Part shown: in pieces, positions 1-63,681 of the stretch
How the letters are laid out: each line of letters begins with the position of its first letter
How positions within the stretch are numbered: position 1 is the stretch's first letter
Source of the DNA: an uncultured Eudoraea sp.
GTDB taxonomy: Bacteria; Bacteroidota; Bacteroidia; Flavobacteriales; Flavobacteriaceae
Length of the DNA stretch: 64,000 bases
Direction of reading: 5' to 3'
NCBI GenBank assembly: GCA_964636005.1
Contig: CAZWPZ010000044.1
Span: forward strand, 9,694 to 73,693
Made by a program: the position numbers and the translations under genes
Notes under the pieces: model-generated
What the model saw: only the letters and a program-made list of their open reading frames with translations
What the model was told of the DNA's origin: nothing
Databases searched by the model: none

Positions 1-696
1 ATTCCACAATACCTCATGGATGGCGTTGTAGACGTTGCCATTATTGGTGAAAATGTTTTGCTCGAAAAAGGAGGTGACATTCGCATCAGTGAAAAGCTAG
101 GTTTTTCAGGATGCAGGGTTTCTTTGGCTGTCCCAAAATCTTTTGAATACAACTCGATTAAGGATTTAGACGGGAAGAAAATTGCTACCTCATATCCAAA
201 TACGCTAAAGAAGTACTTAGAAAAACAAGAGGTCCAAGCAGATTTACATATAATAAATGGCTCCGTTGAGATTGCACCAAATATCGGACTTGCAGATGCT
301 ATCTGCGATATAGTTTCAAGTGGCAGCACTTTATTTAAAAATAATCTCAAAGAAGTTGAGGTTATGTACAAGAGTGAGGCAGTTTTAGCGATTTCACCCA
401 AAATTGACAAAGAAACAACCGAGATTTTGGAAGAAATAAAATTCCGAATTAAGGCCGTGCTTCGAGGAAGAAATTCTAAATACGTCCTGATGAATGTACC
501 TGATGCAAGCTTGAAAAATGTTATTGAAATATTACCCGGGATGAGAAGTCCAACGGTACTTCCACTTGCGGAAGAAGGCTGGAACTCAGTGCATACGGTG
601 ATTAATCGAGATAAGTTTTGGGAGGTAATTAATGAATTAAAACAAGCTGGTGCAGAAGGAATTTTGGTTTGTCCTATTGAGAAGATGGTATTATGA
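1..696 (+). CDS. hisG: ATP phosphoribosyltransferase, 3-prime part (gene starts upstream of window)
   Basis: The frame is open from base 1 (IPQYLMDGVVDVAIIGENVL). HisG signature EIAPNIGLADAICDIVSSGSTL is present. It is followed directly by hisD. Confidence 0.9.
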   Translation: MPQYLMDGVVDVAIIGENVLLEKGGDIRISEKLGFSGCRVSLAVPKSFEYNSIKDLDGKKIATSYPNTLKKYLEKQEVQADLHIINGSVEIAPNIGLADAICDIVSSGSTLFKNNLKEVEVMYKSEAVLAISPKIDKETTEILEEIKFRIKAVLRGRNSKYVLMNVPDASLKNVIEILPGMRSPTVLPLAEEGWNSVHTVINRDKFWEVINELKQAGAEGILVCPIEKMVL

Positions 697-5233: not shown

Positions 5234-6006
5234 GACTTATACCTGCAATTGACATCATTGATGGTAAATGTGTACGACTTTCACAGGGCGATTATAACAC
5301 AAAGATTGTCTATAACGAAAATCCCCTGGAGGTAGCTAAAGCATATGAAAATCATGGTATAGAGCATTTGCATTTAGTCGATTTAGATGGGGCAAAAGCC
5401 AATCATATTGTCAATTATAAGATATTAGAGAACATAGCCAGTAGAACAAATCTTTTGGTCGATTTTGGTGGCGGACTAAAGACGGATGAAGATCTGCGTA
5501 TTGCTTTCAATTCTGGTGCCTCACAAATTACTGGCGGAAGCATAGCTGTAAAGGACCCGGATACTTTTATCAATTGGATCGAGCTTTATGGAGCTAATAA
5601 AATTATCCTCGGAGCAGACGTACATCAGCGTAAAATTGCCATTTCGGGATGGGAAGAAGAAACCGATATAGAGCTTCTCCCATTTGTAAAGAAATTCGTA
5701 AAAAAAGGAATATCGTACATCATCTGCACGGACATACAAAAAGATGGTATGCTAGAAGGTCCGTCCTTTGCTCTGTATAAGCAATTATTGGCAAATACTA
5801 TGGTGCATAAAACAGAGGTTACCGGGAGTGGGGTAGAAGATTGGGATGAATTTGGGATTAAATTAATTGCCAGTGGTGGAGTAAGCTCCTTAAAAGACCT
5901 TGAAGGCTTAAAGGATATAGGCTGCGAGGGAGCAATTATTGGTAAAGCTATTTACGAAAATAGAATTTCACTTGCGGAAATAGAGGATTTTATATTAAAC
6001 AGATGA
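5230..6006 (+). CDS. hisA: 1-(5-phosphoribosyl)-5-[(5-phosphoribosylamino)methylideneamino]imidazole-4-carboxamide isomerase
   Basis: Motifs [22 protein letters not shown] and ASGGVSS. I prefer the ATG at 5230 (coupled to the GNAT stop) over the track start at 5209. Confidence 0.9.
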
Positions 6007-6527
6007 AAAAGAAAGAAGTTAGTTGGGAGAGTGAAATAATTGAAAATGCATGTTTTCGGTTAGATGAAAGTACCCGAATGCTAAAGAAATGTCTTCCCCT
6101 TTGGAAAGAAGAAGAAATATGGATAAAACCGAATGAAGTTGCTAATAGTATCGGAAATTTAATCCTTCATATATGTGGTAATATGACCCAGTATATTATT
6201 GCTTCATTAGGAGAAAATAGAGATACGCGTAATCGAAAAGAAGAGTTTAGAATTCAACAAGGTCCTGAAATTTCTGCATTAGTTAAAAAACTCGAGGGCA
6301 CGGTTGCTAAGGCTAAAGCCATACTAAGAGCTAGCTCAAAGGAAGACTTATTGAAATATCGAAAAGTACAAGGATTTAGTTTCTCTGGAATAGGAGTGGT
6401 TTTACATGCCGTAGAACACTATTCCTATCATACAGGTCAAATTGCAATTTGGACCAAAATGATAAAGAATAAAGATCTTGGATTTTACAAGGGTTTAGAC
6501 TTGGATAAAAAAAACGAAAAAGCATAA
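6003..6527 (+). CDS. DinB-like (DUF1572-type) four-helix-bundle protein embedded in the his operon
   Basis: 174 aa. His-rich motifs LILHICGNM and [13 protein letters not shown] are typical of the DinB/YfiT fold. ATGA overlap with hisA and TAATG overlap with hisF. Confidence 0.65.
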
Positions 6528-7282
6528 TGTTGACAAAGAGAATAATTCCTTGCTTGGACATAAAAGACGGAAGAACTGTTAAAGGAGTCAACTTTGTGGC
6601 GCTTAGAGACGCTGGAGATCCTGTGGAACTTGCAGAAATCTATGCTAAGGAAGGTGCTGATGAATTGGTGTTTTTGGATATATCTGCAACAGAAGAAAAA
6701 AGAAAGACCTTAGCAAAATTAGTACGTAATGTTGCATCCAAGGTAAATATACCCTTTACTGTGGGTGGTGGAATATCCTCGATTGAGGATGTCGATGTAT
6801 TACTACAAAATGGTGCAGATAAGGTCTCCATTAACTCCTCAGCAGTGAAAAATCCTGAACTAATAAATGAGTTAGTACAAAAATTTGGATCGCAGTGTAT
6901 AGTTGTGGCAATTGATGCCAAAAAGGTAGAAGGAGAATGGTTAGTTCATTTAGTAGGTGGAAAGGTACCGACGGAAATAGAACTTTTTTCATGGTCAGAA
7001 GAAGTAGAAAGGAGAGGGGCAGGCGAAATATTATTTACCTCTATGGATCATGATGGAACAAAGAATGGTTTTGCGAATGAGACATTAGCGAAACTCTCAT
7101 CGGAGCGGAATATACCTATAATTGCTTCTGGGGGAGCTGGTAAAATAGATCATTTCTTAGATGCATTTGTAAAGGGAAAAGCAGATGCGGCACTAGCTGC
7201 CAGTGTTTTCCACTTTAAAGAAATAAGTTTTAAGGAATTAAAAACTTCTCTAAGAGAAAATCATATTCCAGTTCGTCTTTAA
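6527..7282 (+). CDS. hisF: imidazole glycerol phosphate synthase, cyclase subunit
   Basis: Motifs [24 protein letters not shown] and ASGGAG. Confidence 0.95.
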
Positions 7283-7304
7283 GTTCGATCTTTAATCTAA
7301 ACGT

Positions 7305-7913
7305 ATGAAAAAAATAGCATTTGATAAAAATCCGGATGGTCTAGTACCAGCCATAGTTCAAGATAACACGACCAAGGTGGTTCTGATGTTGGGGTATATG
7401 AATGAGGAGGCATTGGATAAGACTTTGGAACTTAAGAAAGTTACATTTTTTAGTAGAAGCAAAAATCGATTGTGGACCAAGGGCGAAGAAAGTGGAAATT
7501 ATTTGGAATTGGTGAGCTTACAAGTGGATTGTGACAAGGATACCGTTTTGCTTAAAGTTAATCCAATGGGACCAACTTGCCATAAAGGCACCGATACCTG
7601 CTGGAATGAAAAAAATATAGCTACTTATGGTTTCCTTTCGCAACTAGAAACAATTATCGAAAGTCGAAAAGCACAAAAAGATAAAGGGAAGAGTTATGTA
7701 AGTTCTTTGTTTACAGCCGGAATAAATAAAGTAGCACAAAAGGTGGGTGAAGAAGCTGTTGAAACGGTGATCGAAGCAATGGACAATAAAGATCATTTAT
7801 TCCTGGAAGAAAGTGCCGATCTATTATTTCATTACCTCATTTTACTTCAGGCAAAGGGTTTTTCTCTGAAAGACATCGAAAGTGTATTGCAAAAGCGCCA
7901 CGCAAATTCCTGA
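7305..7913 (+). CDS. hisIE: bifunctional phosphoribosyl-AMP cyclohydrolase / phosphoribosyl-ATP pyrophosphatase
   Basis: Motif DCDKDTVLLKVNPMGPTCHKGTDTCW (HisI). C-terminal HisE helix EEAVETVIEA...ESADLLFHYLILL. Confidence 0.92.
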   Translation: MKKIAFDKNPDGLVPAIVQDNTTKVVLMLGYMNEEALDKTLELKKVTFFSRSKNRLWTKGEESGNYLELVSLQVDCDKDTVLLKVNPMGPTCHKGTDTCWNEKNIATYGFLSQLETIIESRKAQKDKGKSYVSSLFTAGINKVAQKVGEEAVETVIEAMDNKDHLFLEESADLLFHYLILLQAKGFSLKDIESVLQKRHANS

Positions 7914-60657: not shown

Positions 60658-60693
60658 AAATTAAGGCATAGTTTTAGGACCATTTTTTAAAAC

Positions 60694-60731
60694 AAAAAAA
60701 GGAAGTAAACTGTTGTAGTACTTCCTTTTTT
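60694..60731. terminator. bidirectional rho-independent terminator
   Basis: Stem GGAAGTA / TACTTCC (60701-60725), flanked by A7 (60694-60700) and T6 (60726-60731). It closes the plus-strand gene and the minus-strand small-ORF cluster. Confidence 0.72.
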
Positions 60732-60769
60732 ATGCAGTGTTGGCCCCTGAGTTCCTTGTGGGGTCTGGT

Positions 60770-60883
60770 CTAGGAAACATAGTTCCTGCTTTCCGTCCAA
60801 CGTACTCTTTTACTATCCTTTAAGGATGAGAAATAAGAAAATCTTCTTGATTCTGTTGGTGAATGGTGCATTGTTGTTTTCAT
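60770..60883 (-). CDS. basic 37-aa peptide, tandem paralogue A
   Basis: Hand-translated: MKTTMHHSPTESRRFSYFSSLKDSKRVRWTESRNYVS. Conserved with B and C through synonymous changes, including switches between serine codon families. Confidence 0.55.
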   Translation of the reverse strand: MKTTMHHSPTESRRFSYFSSLKDSKRVRWTESRNYVS

Positions 60884-60917
60884 GATGTTGATTTTAAATT
60901 GATGAATAGTTTACTGT

Positions 60918-61031
60918 TTAAATGGTGTAATGTCTAGATTCTGACCAGCGTACTCTTTTACTGTTTTTTAAATTAGAAAAATAAGCGTGTCTTTTGGACT
61001 CTGTTGGTGTTTGTTGTACTAAATAGTTCAT
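60918..61031 (-). CDS. basic 37-aa peptide, tandem paralogue B
   Basis: Hand-translated: MNYLVQQTPTESKRHAYFSNLKNSKRVRWSESRHYTI. Confidence 0.55.
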   Translation of the reverse strand: MNYLVQQTPTESKRHAYFSNLKNSKRVRWSESRHYTI

Positions 61032-61072
61032 GACTTGTTTGTTTTATTGATGTGAATGAATACTTTTTTATC

Positions 61073-61186
61073 CTAATGAATGTAGTTTCTAGATTCTGAC
61101 CAGCGTACTCTTTTTGAATTTCTGAAATTAGAAAAGACTGAGTTTCTTCTAGATTCTGTTGGCGATGTTTGTTTTTGATGGCTCAT
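61073..61186 (-). CDS. basic 37-aa peptide, tandem paralogue C
   Basis: Hand-translated: MSHQKQTSPTESRRNSVFSNFRNSKRVRWSESRNYIH. An A-rich leader precedes the ATG. Confidence 0.55.
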   Translation of the reverse strand: MSHQKQTSPTESRRNSVFSNFRNSKRVRWSESRNYIH

Positions 61187-61575
61187 AATTTTAAATTTTG
61201 TTATTACTATTGTTTTTTTTTGACTCGTTCTTAACGAACTACAACTAATAGACGAGAGAAAAATAAAATTGTTACAGTACTATGTTATAACAAGTACCGT
61301 TTTATGCAATTTTTAACAAGTACATTTCATTAAAATAGGAGTTAAGTATCTGTTTTTCTGTTTTTTATGTAAATTTTCGGACTCTTAATAAACTAGAAAG
61401 AAAAATTTCGATTCTTTAGAATGTTAGGTCAATAGCACAAAAAAGAGAGGGAATACTTCTTAAAGAGCCAAGAATCTCTTATCTTGTATAGAGCACATTT
61501 TCCCAAACCTAACATAAGTCATAAACTGCGTTATAATAACTGACTAGCTTGGTTAGATATTCTAAATAAACGATT

Positions 61576-63681
61576 ATGAAAGTATATGACGACAAGCACA
61601 TTAAAAATGTGGTTTTTGTAGGTGCCCACAATAGCGGCAAAACTACCCTGGCAGAAACTATGGTATTTGAAGCCGGATTAATTAATAGAAGAGGAAGCGT
61701 AGAATTAAGGAATACGGTTTCCGACTACCATGAAATTGAGCATGAAAGGGGTACTTCCGTATTTGCAACTCCTTTACATACAGAGTGGCGAAATTATAAA
61801 ATTAATATCATTGACACTCCTGGGCTCGACGATTTCGTAGGAGAAATAATCTCTTCTATACGGGTTGCCGATACTATAGTAACGGTTATTAATGCGCAAC
61901 ATGGCGTTGAAATAGGTACAGAGATCATATGGAACTATGTTAGCAATTACTCCAAACCAACCTTATTTGTCGTTAACCAAATAGATCATATTAATGCTAA
62001 TTATGAAAATACCCTCAAAGGAATTCACGCCTTAGTGGGTAACAATGGTGTGCTTGTTCAGTATCCTACAACCATTGAAGGGGCACAATGTATCATAGAT
62101 GTCCTAAAGATGAAGTGCTATAAATTTTCTAAGAACGGAGGAAAGCCAGAAAAACTGGCTATTCCAGAAGACCATCAGGAAAGAGCCAATAAGCTTCATA
62201 ACGAATTGGTAGAGAAAGCTGCCGAAAATGACGAGGAATTAATGGAGCTTTTTTTCGATAAAGGCACGCTCAATGAAAATGAAATGAGACAGGGCATAAA
62301 AGCAGGTATGCTAAATCATGAGCTATTTCCAATTTTCTGTGTCTCGGCATTACAGGATATGGGTAGTGGCAGACTTATGGGTTTCATCGATAATGTAGCG
62401 CCTGCTGCAGCCGATCTCACTCCTGAACAGACCACCGAAGGAGAAGTACTTGTAAGGAAAAAAGAAGCCGCAACGGTACTCTTTGTTTTTAAAACGGTCT
62501 ACCAGCCTAATCTAGGACAAATATCCTTTTTTAAGGTTAAATCGGGATCTATATCTACTAATGATAAATTACAAAACTCAAGAACTGGGGAAATAGAAGT
62601 ACTTAACCACCTCTATATCATGGATGGCAAAAAGCGAGAACCTGTTTCGAAATTGGAGGTTGGGGATATCGGTGCGACTCTTAAATTAAAAAATACCGAG
62701 ACAAACGATACACTTCATGAAATAAATTCAAGGATTACTATAAAACCAATAAACTATCCATCGCCCAGAACCAGAAAGGCAGTTTCGGCTGTCCACAAAA
62801 ATGAAGAGGAAAAACTAAGCGATGCCTTGAAAAAAATTCATTCGCAAGACCCCACCGTAGAACTAGAATATTTTAAAGAATTAAAACAACAAATATTAGG
62901 TTGTCAGGGAGAGTTACACTTGGCAACAATAAATTGGACCTTAAAAAACATTTATGGAATTGAGGCAAAATTTGAAAGACCCAAAATAGCTTATAGAGAA
63001 ACTATTCAACGTGCATCAAATGCAAACTATAGACACAAGAAGCAGTCGGGAGGTGCCGGACAATTTGCTCAGGTACACCTAAAAATAGAACCTTGGTACG
63101 AGGGCATACCAGAACCAGAAGGTTTTAATATTAGAGGTAAAGAAGAAATAGATCTAGTCTGGGGAGGTAAACTTGTATTTTATAATTGCATTGTAGGTGG
63201 GGTTATTGATTTGCGATACCTTCCATCTATTAAGAAAGGAATTCTGGAGGTTATGGAGTCCGGACCTCTTACAGGATCTTATATCCGGGATATCAGAGTT
63301 ATGGTCTACGACGGTAAAATGCATTCGGTAGACTCCAATGATATTGCTTTTAAAATTGCAGGGGCTCATGCTTTTAAGGAAGCCTTTTTAAATGCAAAAC
63401 CAAAACTTTTAGAACCGATTCAGGAGCTAACTGTAAAAGTTCCGGAAGATATGGTAGGAAGTGTAATGACCGACCTTCAGTCCAGGCGATCCATAATTCA
63501 GGGAATAGACAGTGAAGACCATTATCAAATTCTAAAATGTATGGTGCCTCAAGCAGAATTACACGGTTATTCTACCAACTTACGATCCTTGACACAAGGC
63601 AAAGCTACCTTCAATGCTTCCTTCGCAACCTTCAAGGCCGTACCCAACAACCTGCAGGCATCCTTGGTAAATGTAGACTAG
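61576..63681 (+). CDS. elongation factor G family GTPase, divergent paralogue
   Basis: 701 aa with full five-domain EF-G length. Motifs GAHNSGKT, RGTS, DTPGLDDF, NQID and KKQSGGAGQFAQV. It is not in an rpsL-rpsG-fusA context. Confidence 0.85.
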   Translation: MKVYDDKHIKNVVFVGAHNSGKTTLAETMVFEAGLINRRGSVELRNTVSDYHEIEHERGTSVFATPLHTEWRNYKINIIDTPGLDDFVGEIISSIRVADTIVTVINAQHGVEIGTEIIWNYVSNYSKPTLFVVNQIDHINANYENTLKGIHALVGNNGVLVQYPTTIEGAQCIIDVLKMKCYKFSKNGGKPEKLAIPEDHQERANKLHNELVEKAAENDEELMELFFDKGTLNENEMRQGIKAGMLNHELFPIFCVSALQDMGSGRLMGFIDNVAPAAADLTPEQTTEGEVLVRKKEAATVLFVFKTVYQPNLGQISFFKVKSGSISTNDKLQNSRTGEIEVLNHLYIMDGKKREPVSKLEVGDIGATLKLKNTETNDTLHEINSRITIKPINYPSPRTRKAVSAVHKNEEEKLSDALKKIHSQDPTVELEYFKELKQQILGCQGELHLATINWTLKNIYGIEAKFERPKIAYRETIQRASNANYRHKKQSGGAGQFAQVHLKIEPWYEGIPEPEGFNIRGKEEIDLVWGGKLVFYNCIVGGVIDLRYLPSIKKGILEVMESGPLTGSYIRDIRVMVYDGKMHSVDSNDIAFKIAGAHAFKEAFLNAKPKLLEPIQELTVKVPEDMVGSVMTDLQSRRSIIQGIDSEDHYQILKCMVPQAELHGYSTNLRSLTQGKATFNASFATFKAVPNNLQASLVNVD

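Follow-up and report, generated by a model that had tools for sequence, protein, structure and literature searches.

A 64-kb stretch of a contig assembled from an uncultured Eudoraea sp. (GenBank CAZWPZ010000044.1, positions 9,694 to 73,693; in the following, the window) carries on its minus strand an array of three tandem open reading frames (ORFs) that are genuine protein-coding genes under purifying selection. They encode paralogous basic mini-proteins of 37 amino acids (aa), members of a family confined to one clade of marine Flavobacteriaceae. The array appears to form one transcription unit, reaching from a conserved promoter of the kind used by extracytoplasmic function (ECF) sigma factors to an intrinsic terminator, and with a promoter and a terminator of its own it can be regarded as autonomous. 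Both the 37-aa family and the architecture of array plus promoter are rated as new. Overall, we consider it likely that this promoter-to-terminator unit supplies mini-proteins in a stress-induced burst. The conserved ECF-type promoter and a superfamily of further tiny ORFs sharing it were absent from a preliminary description of the window, and the finding is richer than first described.

Reading of the strand and the ORF listing bore out the three tandem 37-codon ORFs of the preliminary description, with spacers of 41 and 34 nt. The peptide labels had been interchanged, peptide A (MKTTMHH...) belonging to the ORF at 60883-60770 and peptide C (MSHQKQ...) to that at 61186-61073; for the peptides as named, the quoted codons are correct (Ser24, AGT/AGT/TCA; Arg28, CGT/CGC/CGC; Ser32, AGC/TCT/TCT; Arg33, AGG/AGA/AGA). 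Alignment of the three peptides reproduced the 18 invariant columns out of 37, the net charge of +5 to +6, and the absence of Cys, Gly, and any hydrophobic segment. As no peptide contains a run of five or more hydrophobic residues, a type I toxin or other membrane-active small protein was rejected as a candidate identity. The degenerate back-translated core of the peptides occurs three times in the window against 0.00 occurrences expected, which, together with intact frames in 82 other loci, places the three-copy pattern well beyond chance.

One genome per species was scanned with the pattern [NDS]SKRVRW[STA]E. The scan gave 91 confirmed places, from which 80 loci were kept (loci of this and the metagenome scan carry the prefix L), and copies were counted in six frames in these loci, in two further contigs (82 loci), and in the window. 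Each of the 169 family copies found is an intact ORF of 35 to 39 codons beginning with ATG, and 136 to 140 have exactly 37 codons. Frame, start, and stop were intact in 165 of 165 copies of the six-frame analysis; the ATG lies about 23 codons upstream of the core in every copy, and the stop codon follows 8 codons past the Trp residue in 154 of the 165 (7 to 9 codons in all). Since the search pattern comprised the nine-residue core alone and thus exerted no selection on where the ORFs start and stop, the conservation of these positions constitutes independent evidence. The homologues recur in tandem, a point on which the preliminary description had asked for a check, with one to four copies per locus and gaps of mostly 23 to 82 nt. 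The hosts found in the genome scan are all Flavobacteriaceae, namely, Eudoraea, Robiginitalea, Zeaxanthinibacter, Muriicola, Maribacter, Saonia, Pricia, Poritiphilus, Sediminicola, and Aurantibacter, with Eudoraea chungangensis providing the best match; the window resembles Eudoraea most.

Across 138 distinct coding sequences (CDS) of 37 codons, the entropies of the three codon positions were 0.72, 0.60, and 1.27, i.e., third positions were about twice as variable as first and second ones; only residues 2 to 8 vary, and residues 9 to 35 are conserved. Invariant residues use every synonymous codon (six for R26, four for V27, and both AGY and TCN for S24). The ratio of nonsynonymous to synonymous substitution rates (dN/dS) between the window genes and their orthologues in E. 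chungangensis (L003) was about 0.14 for gene 1, about 0.06 for gene 2, and below 0.03 for gene 3, for which the proportions of nonsynonymous and synonymous differences (pN, 0.023; pS, 0.83) indicate synonymous saturation. In a three-way DNA alignment of the window, L003, and L004, insertions and deletions are confined to the spacers, and the sole ones among 23 diverse aligned copies are in frame. With dN/dS values of at most 0.14, codon periodicity, and intact frames, the ORFs are confirmed as coding paralogues under purifying selection. Frame-breaking insertions or deletions, stop codons, and RNA covariation indicative of a small RNA (sRNA) repeat, all named in the preliminary description as signs against coding, were looked for and did not appear.

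Short tandem units preceded by a conserved 5' region could also be expected if the repeats acted mainly as a structured sRNA or as cis-regulatory leader ORFs, the peptides being incidental. However, RNAalifold predicted 0 consensus base pairs for the 23 diverse copies, neither the window region nor any of 10 related loci gave an Rfam match for the array, and the three-base periodicity and saturated synonymous sites speak for constraint at the protein level. Nor does a leader function fit the layout, as no co-oriented gene lies downstream but only the terminator and then a convergent DUF4251 gene, and as no regulatory codon run is present. This reading is largely refuted, and we give it hardly any credence.

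Adenine occupies positions -13, -12, and -11 relative to the start codon in 90, 96, and 96% of 168 copies and position -6 in 64%, and a purine occupies position -3 in 99%; the leader of gene 1 has A at -13 to -11 and at -3. In Flavobacterium johnsoniae, where initiation proceeds without Shine-Dalgarno use, A-rich positions upstream of the start were measured to be positive initiation determinants, and adenines at -11 to -14, -6, and -3 without a Shine-Dalgarno sequence served as the criterion for a Bacteroidia-type start (PMC6847099). The positional profile agrees with these determinants, so that the A-rich leaders noted in the preliminary description can be regarded as true Bacteroidia initiation signals and each ORF as equipped with a strong start of its own.

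The motif TGTAAC-N16-CGTC occurs a single time in the 64-kb window (61251-61276, minus strand; chance expectation, 0.04) and ends 64 nt ahead of the first ATG. Of 79 loci, 63 have it ahead of their first copy, at differing genomic locations, and it is rare elsewhere in the approximately 800 kb of loci. Although 65 distinct loci were selected on TGTAAC-N16-CGTC alone, they share the near-invariant CATAGTACTGTAACAA, and their extended conservation can be written as TTTtATaCATAGTACTGTAACAA-N14-TCGTCTATTAGtTGTAAGTC. The putative 5' untranslated region (UTR) would begin with a conserved TATTAGTTGTAG, followed by a small hairpin; multi-locus and three-way alignments delimit a conserved stretch TCGTCTATTAGTTGTA(A/G)G at this site, and the fold of the UTR is weak (z = -0.43). 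No sigma-A box (TAnnTTTG) is visible between the promoter motif and the first ATG of the window array. We read the promoter as ECF type because an AAC-containing -35 region and a CGT-containing -10 region are spaced by 16 nt; a CGT box at -10 has been taken as an ECF signature in flavobacteria, and the same reasoning was applied to motif SM6 of F. psychrophilum (PMC9723704). An ECF-sigma-dependent, stress-type promoter is therefore predicted with good support. Its element is among the most conserved that we have met in the phylum.

The promoters of known ECF regulons of Bacteroidia (P. gingivalis PG0214-0216 and PG0985-0987; F. psychrophilum SM6) resemble that of the array in that AAC closes the -35 region and 16 nt separate it from a CGTC at -10, and the core of the array promoter also stands directly before ECF sigma genes in L112 and L207-L212. 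In P. gingivalis, operons of the sigma/anti-sigma/DUF4252 type were among the genes upregulated in the PG_0686 mutant FLL361, under anaerobic conditions as well as under H2O2 stress (PMC10101095). Two differences set the arrays apart. In the Flavobacteriaceae arrays, the promoter is extended by a CATAGTAC block that hardly varies and by approximately 30 conserved nt upstream, and none of the described ECF regulons has, as here, tandem arrays of 28- to 45-codon ORFs as its dominant output. Conservation of about 30 nt upstream of the CATAGTAC block is seen across 112 promoter instances among the metagenome matches listed, and on the minus strand of the window GTACTTGTTA recurs twice ahead of the -35 region, at 61288-61297 and at 61314-61323; for both reasons a second regulator site is conceivable, and the region upstream of CATAGTAC may be a candidate binding site of an additional regulator. 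The -35 region of the window array itself reads GTACTGTAAC. An alternative in which a TAnnTTGY-like box further upstream drives transcription and the conserved block forms part of the 5' leader was judged less likely, as this box is broken in the window and in Eudoraea and as TGTAAC-N16-CGTC lies 8 to 9 nt ahead of sigma-gene starts elsewhere.

At the other end of the array, the bidirectional terminator that the preliminary description had placed at 60694-60731 was recovered as a hairpin with a U-run folding at about 60692-60735 (-21.4 kcal/mol, z = -2.2). A simple terminator scan had overlooked it because its loop is longer than the limit of the scan. The 3' stem arm and the T-run are kept in L003 and L004. 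As judged from its stem and flanking runs, the terminator can act both ways, ending the array transcript and serving the convergent DUF4251 gene. The GACCCC...GGGGC of a smaller hairpin right behind gene 3, distinct from the terminator, is conserved in the window, L003, and L004. The genes flanking the arrays run divergently or convergently to them and vary with the locus type, as fits a stand-alone unit. The coordinates of all elements are compiled in Table 1.

Table 1. Elements of the mini-protein array in the window
Feature	Position	Strand	Remarks
Conserved upstream element and -35 region, TTATAACATAGTACTGTAACAA	61269-61290	minus	Motif scan, multi-locus conservation
Full promoter, CATAGTACTGTAAC-N16-CGTC	61251-61284	minus	ECF-sigma type (predicted), highly conserved
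-35 hexamer TGTAAC	61271-61276	minus	Predicted ECF-type promoter
-10 element CGTCT	61250-61254 (CGTC, 61251-61254)	minus	16 nt past the -35 hexamer
5' UTR	61187-61244	minus	Putative; start assumed a few nt past -10
Mini-protein gene 1, MSHQKQTSPTESRRNSVFSNFRNSKRVRWSESRNYIH	61073-61186	minus	37 aa, 114 nt, ATG and stop
Mini-protein gene 2, MNYLVQQTPTESKRHAYFSNLKNSKRVRWSESRHYTI	60918-61031	minus	37 aa, 114 nt, ATG and stop
Mini-protein gene 3, MKTTMHHSPTESRRFSYFSSLKDSKRVRWTESRNYVS	60770-60883	minus	37 aa, 114 nt, ATG and stop
Small hairpin CCCC-N12-GGGG	60744-60763	minus	Right after the gene 3 stop; fold
Intrinsic terminator	about 60692-60735	minus	GGAAGUA/UACUUCC stem between A-run and U-run

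A scan of metagenomes with CATAGTACTGTAAC-N16-CGTC returned at least 120 stretches, and 112 motif instances had enough downstream sequence for evaluation. Among these listed matches, 100 of the 112 instances are followed within 26 to 82 nt by an ORF of at most 50 aa, seven by secreted repeat proteins, three by a 71-aa protein, and one by a 107-aa secreted protein. Beyond the 169 copies of the genome loci, marine metagenomes hold more than 100 promoter-linked arrays with more than 200 tiny ORFs, i.e., arrays of basic ORFs of 28 to 45 codons that share the promoter of the window array. The families behind the promoter comprise, besides 37-aa arrays, ORFs of 28, 29, 33, and 43 to 45 aa and a leading ORF of 38 aa that recurs in many genome loci. 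The 28-aa family is very regular (MRTLNNNQ.T..L..[ST]K...WN.KRR[YF][RK], two to four copies per array), and its 86 distinct CDS display coding periodicity and the same A-rich start context. A C-terminal block [ST]K-x3-W-x3-R-[RN]-[YF] is common to most of the promoter-linked tiny ORFs. In an hhalign comparison, residues 21 to 35 of the 37-aa profile pair with residues 13 to 27 of the 28-aa profile (P = 0.007), and intermediates such as ...STKRVQWGNYRRYSL exist. Common ancestry of the two families is plausible from this pairing of the C-terminal blocks and from the intermediates but is not proven. The tiny-ORF superfamily as a whole is invisible to standard annotation, proteins below annotation thresholds being a known blind spot.

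Arrays of the 28-aa family were observed in L091, L092, L093, L105, L108, L109, L113, L115, L176, L200, and many other metagenome loci, where they are often followed by a 43- to 45-aa ORF. A four-copy array of a 29-aa ORF in L100, MTTSNKSTSTISFSSTKR[VAI]QWGNYRRYSL, bridges the 37-aa and 28-aa motifs; near it lies a SAM-I/IV riboswitch (RF01725, 58.6 bits; 227-325, minus strand). A second tiny-ORF family of 37 to 42 aa with an [IM]G[FS]GW motif (e.g., MKTIVSTTNNLNNYLVIGFGWSGLGEYKKEKNNKTIY, METLHQHQLRPRIYYQIGSGWITDRLY...) often leads the array, its start lying about 57 nt past the -35 element. It was the first ORF after the promoter in genome loci L008, L010, L013, L025, L037, L039, and L049 and in metagenome loci L095, L102, L116, and L199; it is not present in the window array and had no library match. 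In L087, L094, L111, L139, L146, L171, and L175, the same promoter precedes proteins of approximately 95 to 200 aa with a signal peptide and two to three repeats of EEEVELGFDT..YLPENFN. These proteins had no Pfam or NCBIfam match and are probable envelope members of the same regulon.

Neither the peptides nor their relatives correspond to anything described in the resources searched. A profile hidden Markov model (HMM) search of 1.84 billion representative proteins retrieved 36 clusters at E < 1e-3; several of these had been called with a length of exactly 37 aa, and they carry no other name than "hypothetical protein". A homology query with the concatenated peptides found merely four longer, mis-called ORFs. 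The preliminary description could not assign the peptides to a family, and this assessment held: Pfam produced no match beyond Duc1 at E = 0.15, far under its cut-off, there were zero matches in NCBIfam, PHROGs, and PADLOC, and a profile search of the PDB gave chance matches only (best E, 0.54 over 9 residues). The other tiny-ORF families likewise had zero matches in PADLOC, PHROGs, and NCBIfam. Viral contigs contained one chance promoter match inside a peptidase gene, no homologue of the peptides, and none of the other tiny-ORF families; the absence of peptide homologues there argues that the system is not phage-borne. Nothing specific on the promoter string, on Bacteroidetes ECF motifs, or on flavobacterial small ORFs came up when the literature was searched. 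In sum, curated families, structures, RNA families, and the searched literature hold no description of the promoter element or of any of the tiny-ORF families behind it, the 37-aa peptides included. A likeness of KRVRW and RRxS to eukaryotic PP1-docking and kinase motifs was dropped as untestable.

Two candidates for the cognate sigma factor were examined (L112 type and L045 type), and neither qualified as the factor acting on the arrays of the peptide-bearing Flavobacteriaceae; the 64-kb window contains no related ECF sigma gene. Among the metagenome matches listed, a sigma/anti-sigma operon stands behind the full motif once, in L112. This operon (5881-7541) and its counterparts in L207-L212 (2468-4100) are ECF sigma/anti-sigma/DUF4252 operons of Bacteroidales adjoining rpsL-rpsG-fusA. 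The sequence cTGTAAC-N16-CGTC lies 8 to 9 nt before the ATG of the sigma gene in L112 and is retained by all its orthologues in L207-L212 (approximately 60% identity), the motif being full in L112 and reduced to its core in the latter. The arrangement looks like an autoregulated ECF promoter, and the short distance to the ATG implies that the sigma mRNA would be leaderless or nearly so. As the L112-type sigma factor is from Bacteroidales and not from peptide-bearing Flavobacteriaceae, it was rejected as the cognate factor. The second candidate is an ECF sigma/anti-sigma pair widespread in Flavobacteriaceae and divergent from a DUF6249 membrane protein gene (L045, L203, L206). Here, TGTAACC-N17-CGTC occurs back to back on both strands (L045, 6150-6290; L203 and L206, about 2930-2990), and in L045 and L203 a lone gene of the 37-aa family, lacking the strict form of the promoter, lies 1.3 kb from the sigma gene, between the genes of a Por_Secre_tail protein and a MOSC protein. 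This candidate was rejected because its promoter variant differs. EcfO/Reo was set aside as a different, Dma-type system.

From these features, the following course of events can be proposed. The array would be silent until a stress signal releases an ECF sigma factor, which would give rise to a single polycistronic transcript from the promoter at 61251-61276 to the terminator at about 60692-60735. The transcript would deliver a burst of the three paralogous basic mini-proteins, each with its own start signal. Given that signal peptides and hydrophobic segments are absent, the mini-proteins would stay in the cytoplasm, where their invariant SKRVRW-E-R-Y block would serve to bind a polyanionic target such as DNA or RNA, the latter ribosomal or other. 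Such a target is favoured by the charge and by the content of aromatic residues and Arg/Lys; that the mini-proteins bind nucleic acid or the ribosome is nonetheless a tentative proposal, possible but short of probable.

Several observations weigh against this course of events. The promoter is assigned by motif logic alone. The strict motif is missing in 16 of 79 loci, and some of the peptide genes concerned directly follow another gene (L045, L203). An invariant block of at least 14 nt and 30 conserved nt upstream exceed what an ECF -35 region needs, and an extra regulator site or another reading of this block is possible. Among the matches listed, the sole sigma gene behind the full extended motif is on a Bacteroidales contig, and the Flavobacteriaceae sigma gene near a peptide gene carries the variant TGTAACC-N17-CGTC. 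With respect to function, the nucleic-acid role derives only from charge and aromatic content, and an AlphaFold2 model built on a 20-sequence alignment is of low confidence (predicted local distance difference test [pLDDT], 66), with two tentative helices.

The alternating conservation W-x-E-x-R-x-Y fits a specific protein partner equally well. The mini-proteins might thus bind one protein, such as the anti-sigma factor or a protease of the ECF pathway in a feedback loop, RNA polymerase, or an envelope-biogenesis enzyme. Conservation is residue specific (PTE, FS, SKRVRW, E31, R33, and Y35) and far stricter than polyanion binding requires, the alternation of W29, E31, R33, and Y35 suggests one conserved face of an extended strand, and the promoter also precedes secreted or membrane proteins and a sigma/anti-sigma pair. 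Moreover, instead of having been homogenized, each of the three paralogues forms an orthologous group of its own that persists from one Eudoraea species to the next, which argues for distinct specificities. No partner gene is conserved beside the arrays, however, and the high charge, the multiple copies, and the maximal translation signals are better suited to a stoichiometric, abundant target; the AlphaFold2 model is uninformative in this regard. We consider a single protein partner doubtful; if true, the arrays would encode a new family of small-protein regulators.

With regard to a nucleic-acid target, the ribosomal proteins bL34, bL36, bTHX, and bS22 and the factor RMF resemble the mini-proteins in size (approximately 25 to 55 aa), positive charge, and a combination of aromatic residues with Arg/Lys; the mini-proteins matched no Pfam or NCBIfam HMM of these proteins and no PDB chain, including those of ribosomes. 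Being multi-copy, restricted to one clade, and apparently driven by a stress promoter, they are not core ribosomal components. If they did bind the ribosome or RNA, they would represent a new class of stress or hibernation factor. To our knowledge, the phylum lacks RMF, and it uses Shine-Dalgarno-independent initiation. That the arrays are the main output of a conserved ECF stress regulon and constitute an abundant class of stress-induced ribosome- or RNA-binding proteins, e.g., for hibernation or protection, is a speculation that we regard as unlikely. The small acid-soluble spore proteins (SASPs) offer an analogy: paralogous small proteins made under a dedicated alternative sigma factor saturate a nucleic-acid target. 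SASPs comprise 60 to 70 aa and are encoded by monocistronic genes scattered in the genomes of spore formers, whereas the mini-proteins have 37 aa, their genes are tandem, their hosts are non-sporulating Flavobacteriaceae, and nucleic-acid binding is only predicted. The likeness to the alpha/beta-type SASPs of Bacillus is one of logic only, as no sequence similarity to the mini-proteins exists.

Small, tandem, paralogous ORFs with seven variable N-terminal residues might instead be precursors of ribosomally synthesized and posttranslationally modified peptides (RiPPs) or bacteriocins, with the enzymes encoded elsewhere in the genome. Precursor genes located far from the modification enzymes are known in other systems, and scattered precursors of the prochlorosin type share with the array the tandem paralogous small ORFs away from enzymes. 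Yet the mini-proteins, in which a conserved stretch of 29 C-terminal residues follows 7 variable ones, show the reverse of a conserved leader with a hypervariable core; they lack a leader/core division as well as Cys, Gly, and a double-Gly or other known cleavage motif, and purifying selection (orthologue dN/dS, at most 0.14) extends over the C-terminal 29 residues. In the neighbourhoods of roughly 200 loci, no recurring gene encodes a radical-SAM enzyme, a cyclase, a protease, or an ABC exporter, and no recurrent modification enzyme or exporter of any kind was found near the arrays of the genome loci and listed metagenome loci. A RiPP identity is thus very unlikely.

Irrespective of the target, the proposed unit makes a clear prediction, namely, burst induction of the array under some stress. 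A defined promoter with its targets also provides a testable entry into ECF sigma signalling of marine Flavobacteriaceae, a group with a major part in breaking down algal biomass.

Divergently from the array, at 61576-63681 on the plus strand of the window, lies a gene for a paralogue of elongation factor G (EF-G) of the EF-G2 type. The preliminary description had reported a divergent EF-G paralogue here, and profile matches agree with this. With the Bacteroidota EF-G2 model NF058620 the product reaches 942.5 bits, just short of the cut-off of 1000; it clears the cut-off of the EF-G subfamily model NF009381 (851.6 versus 583) and is 80 to 91% identical to its orthologues in related Flavobacteriaceae loci. 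As a general feature, the link to EF-G did not hold as stated. Of the 82 genome loci, 40 have EF-G2 at a distance of at most 6 kb, in 28 of them as the immediate divergent neighbour; the two genes diverge in loci of the Eudoraea type and converge in those of the Maribacter type. Several genomes possess further clusters away from EF-G2 (e.g., L004/L027 and L010/L045), and among the 120 metagenome loci listed as carrying the promoter, an EF-G homologue is close by in just 2, one of these homologues being canonical fusA. The peptides are basic enough for ribosome binding, and the proximity to EF-G2 in two arrangements could mean that they partner it as cofactors of translation in starvation or stress, with the divergent layout providing co-regulation. 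The clusters located elsewhere in the same genomes and the scarcity of EF-G in metagenome loci contradict this, as do the single ECF-type motif of the window, which points away from EF-G2, and the wide occurrence of EF-G2 in Bacteroidota as opposed to that of the 37-aa family in one Flavobacteriaceae clade. Such a partnership is highly improbable; adjacency to EF-G2 is probably incidental, a lineage-specific synteny of the clade.

Otherwise, the gene neighbours of the arrays are heterogeneous and include those for DUF4251 proteins, a methyltransferase, SDR proteins, lipoproteins, DEAD-box helicases, a dipeptidase, PBP1A, and a protein with a cold-shock domain. A PBP1A-type transglycosylase gene tends to follow shortly downstream of arrays of 33- and 43-aa ORFs, 28-aa arrays are often located beside DEAD-box helicase genes, and Maribacter-type arrays are located near a cold-shock-domain protein gene; these neighbourhoods (L085, L165, L174, L194, and L202; L170 and others), too, may be simple synteny. 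In the metagenome-assembled genome represented by L027, the middle copy of a three-gene array (about 6094-6291) looks degenerate or frameshifted, and the EF-G2 gene is 71% identical, with gaps; an assembly error is a more likely cause of this damage than a true pseudogene.

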